From the IMG/VR virus record IMGVR_UViG_2724679140_000004, positions 1-21,580 of that record: a DNA stretch of 21,580 nucleotides; one strand, given 5' to 3'. Source of the stretch: a virus. Lineage: Duplodnaviria > Heunggongvirae > Uroviricota > Caudoviricetes. The stretch's first letter is position 1. Every line of letters starts with the position of its first letter. The position numbers and the translations under genes are program-made. This document shows, in pieces, positions 9,792-11,192 of the stretch. The notes beneath the pieces were generated by a model. It was not told the DNA's origin, made no database searches, and worked only from the letters and a program-made list of their open reading frames with translations.

Positions 9792-11010
9792 CTCCACTCT
9801 CCTTTTTCTTACCGTTGTCATCGCCAGCAGAGGGACTGGTAGTCATGTTCATCGGCGTCAGATACACATCACCGCCCGGTCGGGGGTTCATATCTTCCAG
9901 ATCACGGCAGTCATTCGGGGAATAAATACCCCAGTTAATCCCCGTGGCATACGCTTCAAAGCGGGATTTCATGTCACCACGCAACAACGCCCCGGCATTA
10001 AATTTGGCGTAAAACTTCCCCTGTTTGCTCTCCCTGACCAGCCCTGTATTGATCCGCTGTTCAATACGGGTCAGATACGGCACAAGGGAATAGTTAATGA
10101 AACCAAGCCCCAGTTCTTCAATATTGTTGAAGGTGGCGCGGTCAGTGTTCTGCACCATATGCAGCGGCACGCGGAACAGACGACAGATTTCTTCCAGCTG
10201 AAACTTGCGGGTTTCCAGGAACTGGCTGTCCTCGGCATTCAGTGCCACCGTTTTCCAGTCCAGCCCCATTTCCAGAATCATCGGACGATGAGAATTTCCC
10301 AGCCCGACATGCCGTTCCTCAAAATCCTTTTTGATACGTGCATAAGCCTGATCAGTAAGTTGTTGATCCGTACGCAACACACCGGATGTCACAGCACCGT
10401 TACCAAACAACCTGGCACCGTGCTCCTCGGTTGCCGCTGCCAGTGAAATGGCCTCACGCGCATACGCAATGGGATTCAGCCCGACAAGTCCATCCAGCGT
10501 CAGGGTGCGCACATGCCAGATTTCATTCTGGGTCAGCACGTCCACGGAACCATCCGGAAACGTCACCTGATAAACCGGCTGCCACTGGCTGTTCAGCTTC
10601 GGTTCCACACAGCCCGGATCTATCGGAAGAAGCTCCACCACTTCCCCCAGCGCCTTTACCGTGTAGGCATAAAAATTACCCCGCAGACACAGGCAGACAA
10701 TGACCAGTTCCCAGAATTCCTGCGGCGTCATGTACCCATTGGGTTTTGCCGAGACCAGCTTATGCAGTCGTTCATCCACCGCCCGTGTTTTAAGGGTACC
10801 GGTGATTTTGTAGAGACTGCAGGGCAGCATACCAACAGACTCCGCCAGCACCCTGACGCAGGAATACACCGCCGTCAGCCGCATGGCCCGCTGACTACTG
10901 ATCCGCTTTCCGGTATAGGTGTCATACGACAGCCCGATGGCATCCGCCAGCTCTGCTGGCGTGGTCACCGGCGCGTCATTTTTTCGTTGAAATAATCCCG
11001 AAAAGAACAC
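9769..11010 (-). CDS. Portal protein, HK97 family, 413 aa
   Basis: Size and position after the terminase large subunit. GTG start at 11010 with GGAGG 6 nt upstream. Confidence 0.85.
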   Translation of the reverse strand: MFFSGLFQRKNDAPVTTPAELADAIGLSYDTYTGKRISSQRAMRLTAVYSCVRVLAESVGMLPCSLYKITGTLKTRAVDERLHKLVSAKPNGYMTPQEFWELVIVCLCLRGNFYAYTVKALGEVVELLPIDPGCVEPKLNSQWQPVYQVTFPDGSVDVLTQNEIWHVRTLTLDGLVGLNPIAYAREAISLAAATEEHGARLFGNGAVTSGVLRTDQQLTDQAYARIKKDFEERHVGLGNSHRPMILEMGLDWKTVALNAEDSQFLETRKFQLEEICRLFRVPLHMVQNTDRATFNNIEELGLGFINYSLVPYLTRIEQRINTGLVRESKQGKFYAKFNAGALLRGDMKSRFEAYATGINWGIYSPNDCRDLEDMNPRPGGDVYLTPMNMTTSPSAGDDNGKKKESGDADKTAS

Positions 11011-11192
11011 TATTTACCTCCGCCGACAGACTGCTGTGTACGGTCGAGATATCGCGCCACCAGCCACGACCAGAACAGGCACAGCGCCCCGGCAACAACA
11101 AAACCCGCCGGGGGATAAATCAGCCAGGCACCATACGCCAGCAAAAGCGCACCCAGCACGCCCACCAGTGGCGCGAGAATTATCAGAAACAT
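11010..11192 (-). CDS. Small two-helix membrane protein (60 aa) between terL and portal
   Basis: [26 protein letters not shown]...[20 protein letters not shown]. Codon usage resembles the host (CTG/GCG-rich); GAGG upstream of the ATG; its stop overlaps the portal GTG (TAGTG). Confidence 0.55.

Follow-up and report, generated by a model that had tools for sequence, protein, structure and literature searches.

Why should a phage with an HK97-type head carry a gene for a very small membrane protein between the genes for its large terminase subunit and its portal? The question is raised by a stretch of viral DNA of 21,580 nucleotides (nt), positions 1 to 21,580 of IMG/VR virus record IMGVR_UViG_2724679140_000004 (Caudoviricetes), which is called the window below. 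Its minus strand, which also holds all other window features described here, carries at 11192..11010 a coding sequence for a membrane hairpin of 60 amino acids (aa), a member of the phrog_502 family. An earlier note, made from the sequence without database searches, had pointed out this open reading frame (ORF) and had suggested a membrane anchor for assembly, a superinfection-exclusion factor or a moron. We found that the gene is tied to the portal: its family stands directly upstream of portals of the PF04860 type and follows them, not the terminase, through mosaic exchange. This linkage points, tentatively, to a role in head assembly at the inner membrane, which is weighed below against other explanations as the evidence for each comes up.

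The hairpin gene and its product

An open frame of 60 codons is expected by chance at the base composition of the window with p ~0.05, so the ORF on its own is weak evidence and conservation is the real evidence. The frame was intact, with the same junctions, in approximately 100 loci that were fetched, and was kept at the same position between terL and portal in related phages, the comparison that the earlier note had called for. Among 5.8 billion proteins we found 166 relatives, nearly all of them about 60 aa long. Summed over all sequence pairs, the ratio of nonsynonymous to synonymous differences (pN/pS) was 0.34 for codons 1-47 and 0.94 for codons 48-60, and the corresponding substitution rate ratio (dN/dS, Nei-Gojobori method) of the core codons 1-47 ranged from 0.06 to 0.4 in divergent pairs, mostly 0.1-0.25. 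The low core dN/dS against a nearly neutral tail therefore indicates selection on the hydrophobic core, and in the tail selection appears to see little beyond the last Gly codons, which spell the ribosome-binding site of the portal gene. There is thus little room for doubt that the ORF is a genuine late gene, part of the operon for head and packaging functions in a lambdoid prophage whose head is of the HK97 type, and the earlier impression that it is real is borne out by its intact frame in those loci and by its core dN/dS. A scan of 10500-11700 against Rfam returned no RNA family, and RNA folding at the 5′ end of the ORF did not exceed the level of shuffled sequence.

Not every copy in the databases is intact. 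Shigella flexneri CP182557 carries, besides an intact locus (L006), a second copy (L015, 5001-5179) whose first helix is interrupted by a frameshift; the matches to terL and portal beside this copy equal those at L006 in length and similarity. Frameshifted variants are also numerous among database proteins (e.g. P0064, P0084, P0090). Such copies may be decaying prophages or sequencing errors.

The earlier note had read the ORF as coupled at both ends, and both signals that it named were located on the minus strand. Upstream, the Shine-Dalgarno sequence GAGG (11201-11198) lies 2 nt past the stop codon of terL (TAA, 11206-11204) and is separated by a 5-nt spacer from the ATG start (11192-11190). 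Downstream, the TAG stop (11012-11010) and the GTG start of the portal gene (11010-11008) overlap by one base in TAGTG (11012-11008). The Shine-Dalgarno sequence of the portal gene itself, GGAGG at 11021-11017, is held by the final hairpin codons, Gly-Gly-Gly-Lys, where it falls in those of Gly58 and Gly59, 6 nt before the portal GTG. Nearly all enterobacterial homologues keep the upstream junction as TAA-C(N)GAGG-5/6 nt-ATG, with both of the terL types described below, and across all of them the portal start overlap is TAGTG, TAATG or TGATG; in homologues the internal Shine-Dalgarno sequence is kept as GGAGG, GGAGA or GGGGG. To judge from this arrangement, ribosomes ending terL would re-initiate on the hairpin gene, and those ending the hairpin gene would re-initiate on the portal gene from a ribosome-binding site written in the last hairpin codons, so that hairpin and portal would be made together, late and at linked rates.

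The description of the product as a two-helix membrane protein was supported both by hydropathy (grand average of hydropathy, GRAVY, 1.19) and by the AlphaFold2 model, which shows a hairpin with helices at residues 2-25 and 27-57 and a break at Pro27-Pro28 (mean predicted local distance difference test score 72, a moderate value). About 45 of the 60 residues fall within the two hydrophobic helices, which have few polar residues. Helix 1 (residues 2-25, 11189..11118) carries the conserved glycines G11, G14 and G21. It is followed by a tight turn, Y26-P-P-A29 (11117..11106), which forms the centre of the family signature, is kept in distant clusters and is predicted to be periplasmic. The membrane segment of helix 2 (residues 30-46, 11105..11055) holds the conserved G30, G35, C38-L39 and W41-S42-W43, and the remainder is a cytoplasmic C-terminal tail (residues 47-60, 11054..11013), almost unconstrained as protein except for the last Gly codons. 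Tails vary among homologues and end in GG[EDK], and family members may have N-terminal extensions of 0-30 aa. Over 147 members, the mean number of Lys and Arg residues was 1.5 in the N-terminal segment, 0.12 in the turn between the helices and 1.6 in the C-terminal tail. By the positive-inside rule, the product is thus predicted with high confidence to be a 6.5-kDa helical hairpin in the inner membrane, with both ends cytoplasmic and the YPPAG turn at the periplasmic face. The window protein matches the family signature, G..G..L..YGAW.IYPPAG[FY], together with the conserved glycines G11, G14, G21, G30 and G35; since the conserved positions are glycines and the turn, the conserved surface lies within the membrane. 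Some database members (P0153, P0166, P0171 and P0217) are tandem duplications with two hairpins in a chain of 100-120 aa, which suggests that hairpins work at least as pairs. A search of the family profile against all Protein Data Bank (PDB) sequences, virion structures included, found nothing with E up to 1. Foldseek comparison of the model with the PDB gave nothing significant; its top match was a hairpin of SpaQ from the type 3 secretion export gate (E 5.2).

These observations bear on one explanation of the locus, in which the ORF is a pure translational coupler or spacer that sets the ratio of portal to terminase, while the peptide as such does nothing. The portal ribosome-binding site inside the ORF, the overlap of its stop with the portal start and the almost neutral evolution of the tail would all suit a coupler, and coupling appears to be a general rule at this junction, because in HK97, which lacks the gene, a one-base overlap joins terL directly to the portal start. 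A mere coupler, however, would have no need of a conserved hydrophobic hairpin, nor would it account for strong purifying selection over 47 codons (dN/dS 0.06-0.4) or for a family signature and glycines kept over more than 400 clusters at 50% identity, and we regard this explanation as very improbable.

Linkage of the family to the portal

The gene is already known, having been catalogued since phiP27, two decades ago, and the window protein is an ordinary member of phrog_502 with nothing to set it apart. It matches the phrog_502 profile ('membrane protein') with E 2.2e-27, residues 1-55 aligning to positions 3-57 of 58, scores 94 bits against a hidden Markov model (HMM) of the family built here, and is 92-98% identical to the annotated phage genes phiP27 L37, SfII_03 and ST64B sb3, of which L37 (NP_543089) carries the label 'putative integral membrane protein'. 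Megablast also found the ORF in SfI, SfIV, 118970_sal3, phi467 and vB_EcoM-606R7 (98% protein identity), and gene 3 of Marinobacter phage AS1 belongs to phrog_502 as well. The region recurs in a quarter of complete E. coli genomes (1404 of 5426), where the gene is annotated as 'hypothetical protein'. When a profile was run against 1.84 billion representatives of clusters at 50% identity, 442 clusters were retrieved with E up to 1e-3, of which nearly all were 45-80 aa long and had the same turn motif. The named sources of relatives were all Proteobacteria (alpha-, beta- and gamma-), and all 66 distant members that were tested matched phrog_502. No match to the window protein was found in Pfam (E up to 0.01) or NCBIfam, or among the PADLOC defence-protein models (E up to 1), and neither Pfam nor NCBIfam has a model for the family; when 66 relatives were compared with Pfam, only generic matches to two-helix DUF families (DUF1206, DUF2244) were seen, far under the cut-offs. 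Our literature search found no functional study of the phrog_502 family and no report of its linkage to the portal, and the gene goes unmentioned in the SfI genome paper.

Four GenBank records (ON470580, ON470584, ON470603 and PQ793804) name the ORF 'head-tail joining protein W', apparently a mistaken label taken over from lambda because of the position. In RefSeq, one Marinobacter protein is named 'DUF2244 domain-containing', while relatives match DUF2244 only far below the Pfam cut-off. These two labels, and the 'moron' category of PHROGs, look wrong. Family members are present without annotation in Yersinia phage PY54 (NC_005069; 2302-2491 of locus L286), in an annotation gap between terL and portal, and in SfIV (NC_022749, 2376-2483). 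Two records attributed to Gram-positive organisms, OR844959.1 ('Enterococcus phage Efm 3-10', 1764 bp) and JAEWTL010000102 (L008, 'MAG: Bacillota bacterium'), hold sequence 93-96% identical to the gene of the E. coli type and are probably contamination or binning errors. In tblastn searches of the phage collection, the low-complexity filter drops helix 1, and relatives are under-reported as a result.

How regularly does the family stand before a portal gene? In the approximately 100 close relatives, the gene lay between terL and portal at every locus but one, at which there was no terL match. For a distant sample that sidesteps the abundant E. coli group, IMG/VR was scanned with a back-translated variant motif, G..W.[LIV]Y[EQ]PAG[FY]. 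All 63 distant loci hold the small ORF at E <=1e-16 against the family HMM. After dereplication, the downstream gene was a PF04860 portal in 49 of 49 loci, and the upstream gene was TerL_nuclease in 42 of 46, with Terminase_3 and Terminase_6N in one each. The portals of these loci are only 21-44% identical among themselves, a few close relatives apart. Every close relative and 47 of 62 distant loci show the exact one-base overlap between the stop of the small gene and the portal start. We are therefore confident that in every sampled locus of the family the gene lies directly upstream of a PF04860 portal gene, with its stop nearly always overlapping the portal start.

In the late operon of the window, a gene for an HNH endonuclease comes first (13978-13592), followed by a small terminase of the P27/Terminase_4 type (13443-12961), terL (12961-11204; PF03354 and PF20441), the hairpin gene, the portal gene (11010-9769; PF04860, E 1.8e-106), an S78 prohead protease (9821-9141) and a major capsid protein of the HK97 fold (9126-7903). 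The same order (HNH, terS, terL, small gene, portal, protease, capsid) was found in a Sphingomonadales genome, a Burkholderiales metagenome-assembled genome and Marinobacter-type contigs. In three of the Marinobacter-type contigs (L290-L292, 5448-6380), the place after the small gene and portal is taken by an S49/NfeD-like protease and not by the S78 prohead protease; as the protease type differs there, the partnership of the small gene is with the portal and not with a type of protease.

Seen from the portal side, the gene is less regular. An independent sample was collected with a portal motif, DAQxLETRxFQ, which the window portal itself does not have; 66 loci had sufficient upstream sequence, and all 66 portals were confirmed as PF04860. 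A family member stood immediately upstream in 20 of them (30%), whereas 42 had no hydrophobic small ORF between terL and portal. Of the other four, two carried a hydrophobic small ORF that the HMM did not recognise (with two predicted segments in L207 and a single long one in L188) and two had a one-segment ORF upstream of the portal. HK97 is itself an example of a phage in which terL abuts the portal without a hairpin gene, gp2 and gp3 overlapping by one base. The earlier note did not count a small inner-membrane protein among the standard parts of HK97-type packaging modules, a view that thus holds for HK97 and has to be softened for PF04860 modules at large. The hairpin gene is optional, common and inherited with the portal.

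This inheritance is visible among the close relatives, where the small gene occurs together with a terL either ~98% or ~36% identical to that of the window, while portal identity never falls below 73%. Megablast matches to phages with the divergent terL type begin at ~11221, 15 nt inside the 3′ end of terL. Common to both terL types are the last codons, GIRSL-stop (11204-11221), and the ribosome-binding site after them. On these grounds the 3′ end of terL looks like a recombination joint between a terminase module and a portal-head module. The reverse combination is found in phages Evi (LR597642, L004) and vB_EcoS-640R1 (L005), which have the terL of the window (98%) and a portal only 29% identical. 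Both carry between these genes, at 3794-3955 and overlapping both, a distinct two-helix ORF of 53 aa, which from its score of 26 bits against the family HMM is a divergent family member.

Over 70 dereplicated loci, the distances among the small proteins correlated with portal distances with a Spearman coefficient of 0.76, compared to 0.61 for terL. Pairs with distant terL and close portals had a mean small-protein distance of 0.24, compared to 0.43 in the reverse case. The nearest portal neighbour shared the same state of presence or absence at a rate of 0.83 against 0.57 in permutations, and presence of the gene spans at least 10 portal clusters. Taken together, we consider it well established that the small gene follows the portal, not terL, through mosaic exchange, and that the family co-diverges with the portal. 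The portals preceded by the gene also differ at their N-termini: mean hydropathy of residues 2-9 was 0.87, against -0.32 in the others (p 2e-6, n=47 and 22), and the termini were also less charged, both comparisons being uncorrected for phylogeny and dependent on start-codon calls. PF04860 portals begin with a short hydrophobic or amphipathic peptide, which in the window is encoded at 11010-10981 (MFFSGLFQRK). The difference between the two groups is a hint of a physical link between the portal N-terminus and the hairpin.

The same observations tell on the proposal that the gene is a moron, or that the prophage expresses it for superinfection exclusion; its product would then shield the lysogen by stopping DNA injection at the inner membrane, in the manner of HK97 gp15. 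In PHROGs, phrog_502 has the category 'moron, auxiliary metabolic gene and host takeover', the product is a small inner-membrane protein, and its frequency in complete E. coli genomes shows that it is very common in prophages. Its distribution, however, tracks portal lineage and is not sporadic, its translation is coupled to late genes at both ends, and it has no PADLOC match. No usable promoter was found either. The sole sigma-70-like match has its -10 element downstream of the hairpin ATG, inside the ORF, and promoter-like sites number 1 in 5 kb compared to 3.7 expected by chance from shuffled sequences. A terminator scan of the minus strand found none. Within the small gene of SfII (KC736978; 2370-2419 of locus L001), the record annotates a 'putative rho-independent terminator'; the equivalent segment of the window (11125-11192) folds no better than shuffled sequence (z -0.21). 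GC content (0.59 against 0.50-0.54 in the neighbours), GC content at third codon positions (0.63 against 0.45-0.61) and the codon index, which is inside the range of the neighbouring phage genes, match the neighbours. We therefore rejected a moron with its own promoter, for lack of a usable promoter or terminator, on its neighbour-like composition and on its coupling to late genes at both ends. The wider proposal, prophage-expressed exclusion included, fits poorly with these features and with the co-divergence with the portal, and it seems unlikely.

Possible roles at the inner membrane

What, then, might the hairpin do for the portal? The suggestion of the earlier note, a membrane anchor for assembly, is the best available guess, and the sequence evidence allows it to be put forward only tentatively: the hairpin may be a late inner-membrane partner of portal-initiated head assembly. 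As an accessory partner, it would give the portal a site on the inner membrane at which procapsid assembly starts, or would hold the portal there. It would be an optional improvement and not a core component, because two thirds of the sampled PF04860 modules, HK97 included, work without it. A role in assembly is favoured because of the obligate portal neighbourhood, the co-divergence, the hint from the portal N-terminus and the precedents for assembly at the membrane. For T4, assembly of the portal protein gp20 takes place on the inner membrane and involves phage-encoded gp40 as well as host YidC (PMC4493910), and SPP1 procapsid precursors are found at the membrane in a portal-dependent manner, by a mechanism described as unknown (PMC13212656). 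A more specific version, in which the hairpin recruits or holds the dodecameric portal, perhaps via its hydrophobic N-terminal peptide, such that exactly one portal seeds each procapsid, is more doubtful.

Several points weigh against an assembly role. The parts of the hairpin exposed to the cytoplasm are short and poorly conserved (tail pN/pS 0.94), and the conserved residues are in the membrane and in the periplasmic turn. Since 42 of 66 portals abut terL directly, as in HK97, the hairpin cannot be generally required. The comparison of portal N-termini hangs on start-codon calls and carries no correction for phylogeny. Additionally, other phages are known to tolerate insertions at the junction of terL and portal (PMC7302621), and position alone is thus no proof of partnership. 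The literature search found no interaction, localisation or phenotype data for the family, and the sequence profile search of the PDB found no homologue among solved structures.

The position of the conserved residues agrees better with another possibility, a late membrane effector that acts independently of the portal, and we consider this explanation nearly as likely as the role in portal assembly. Here the hairpin would oligomerise or bind a host inner-membrane protein and so change membrane physiology late in infection, affecting the timing of lysis in the manner of a holin or antiholin, partially depolarising the membrane, or blocking the entry of superinfecting DNA in the late phase; its place before the portal gene would merely secure late, moderate expression. 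The architecture is that of a class II holin, with two helices, both ends inside and a charged C-terminus. Conservation is centred on the membrane-embedded part with glycines typical of helix packing, and the four-helix tandem duplicates suggest that hairpins pair. That only ~30% of modules carry the gene is as expected for a fitness accessory, and lysis genes can sit among packaging genes, as do T7 genes 17.5 and 18.5/18.7. On the other side, the helices are poor in polar residues, and there is no significant match to a holin family, two of 66 members giving a sub-threshold match to Phage_holin_3_6 (E 0.09). An effector unlinked to the portal is also not expected to keep its neighbour and a one-base overlap across portals that are only 23-40% identical, nor to co-diverge with them. 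Finally, the window has a lysis cassette of its own at 14182-15375, with holin families phrog_217 and phrog_198 in overlapping ORFs and an endolysin (phrog_465). The hairpin was therefore rejected as the main holin of this phage. The wider lysis region (13985-15960) also contains an ORF of 84 aa with a lipobox-like LLAGC motif (phrog_7528, to which no function is assigned) and, upstream of the lysis genes at 15463-15960, a TerB-like 'tellurite resistance' protein (phrog_632).

It could also be asked whether the protein travels with the particle, as a pilot or ejection protein at the portal vertex that inserts into the inner membrane of the next host for DNA entry. The gene lies among virion assembly genes, beside the portal, and a hydrophobic hairpin could form or seed a channel. 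A protein with a GRAVY of 1.19 and no soluble domain would, however, be difficult to remove from the membrane for packaging into a lipid-free tailed phage; no homologue is present in any deposited structure, those of virions included, and no proteomic report of the protein was found. There is, in our view, very little chance that this explanation is correct.

Whichever role applies, one of the commonest unnamed genes of enterobacterial phages is an obligate neighbour of the portal across phages of alpha-, beta- and gamma-proteobacteria. If the proposed link between portal and membrane is true, the gene would offer a direct experimental entry to the placement of a single portal vertex in an icosahedral shell, and a third of HK97-type phages would carry a simple, genetically tractable handle on the step described as unknown for SPP1 (PMC13212656). 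If the hairpin is instead a late membrane effector, it would represent a widespread new lysis or exclusion function.

Comparison with known systems

Lambda offers a positional parallel, the head-tail joining protein gpW, which is likewise encoded by a small gene between the large terminase (A) and portal (B) genes. gpW is a soluble virion protein. The window protein, in contrast, is an extremely hydrophobic two-helix membrane protein, and identity with gpW was rejected on its GRAVY of 1.19 and on the Pfam search, which gave no match and hence none to the gpW family. Class II holins and pinholins share with the hairpin their size, two transmembrane helices, cytoplasmic ends and a charged C-terminal tail, but the hairpin gene lies ~3 kb from the lysis cassette, is coupled to the portal gene and has no significant similarity to holin families. 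HK97 gp15, a small inner-membrane protein for superinfection exclusion encoded by a moron in the late structural region, resembles the hairpin in size and location; the hallmarks of a moron, its own promoter and terminator and an odd composition, are missing from the hairpin gene.

The remaining parallels depend on the best guess for its function. PRD1 has two very small integral membrane proteins at its DNA-packaging portal, P20 and P22 (PMC4267777), and the hairpin would be like them in this respect. PRD1 possesses an internal lipid membrane, which tailed phages lack, and this likeness is one of description only. In T4, gene 40 is not adjacent to gene 20, and the T4 portal comes from another family, so that here too the likeness is a hypothesis on function and not a membership based on sequence. 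Under the best guess, the hairpin would resemble T4 gp40, the chaperone that acts with host YidC on portal protein gp20, in being a small phage membrane protein that aids head assembly started from the portal (PMC4493910).

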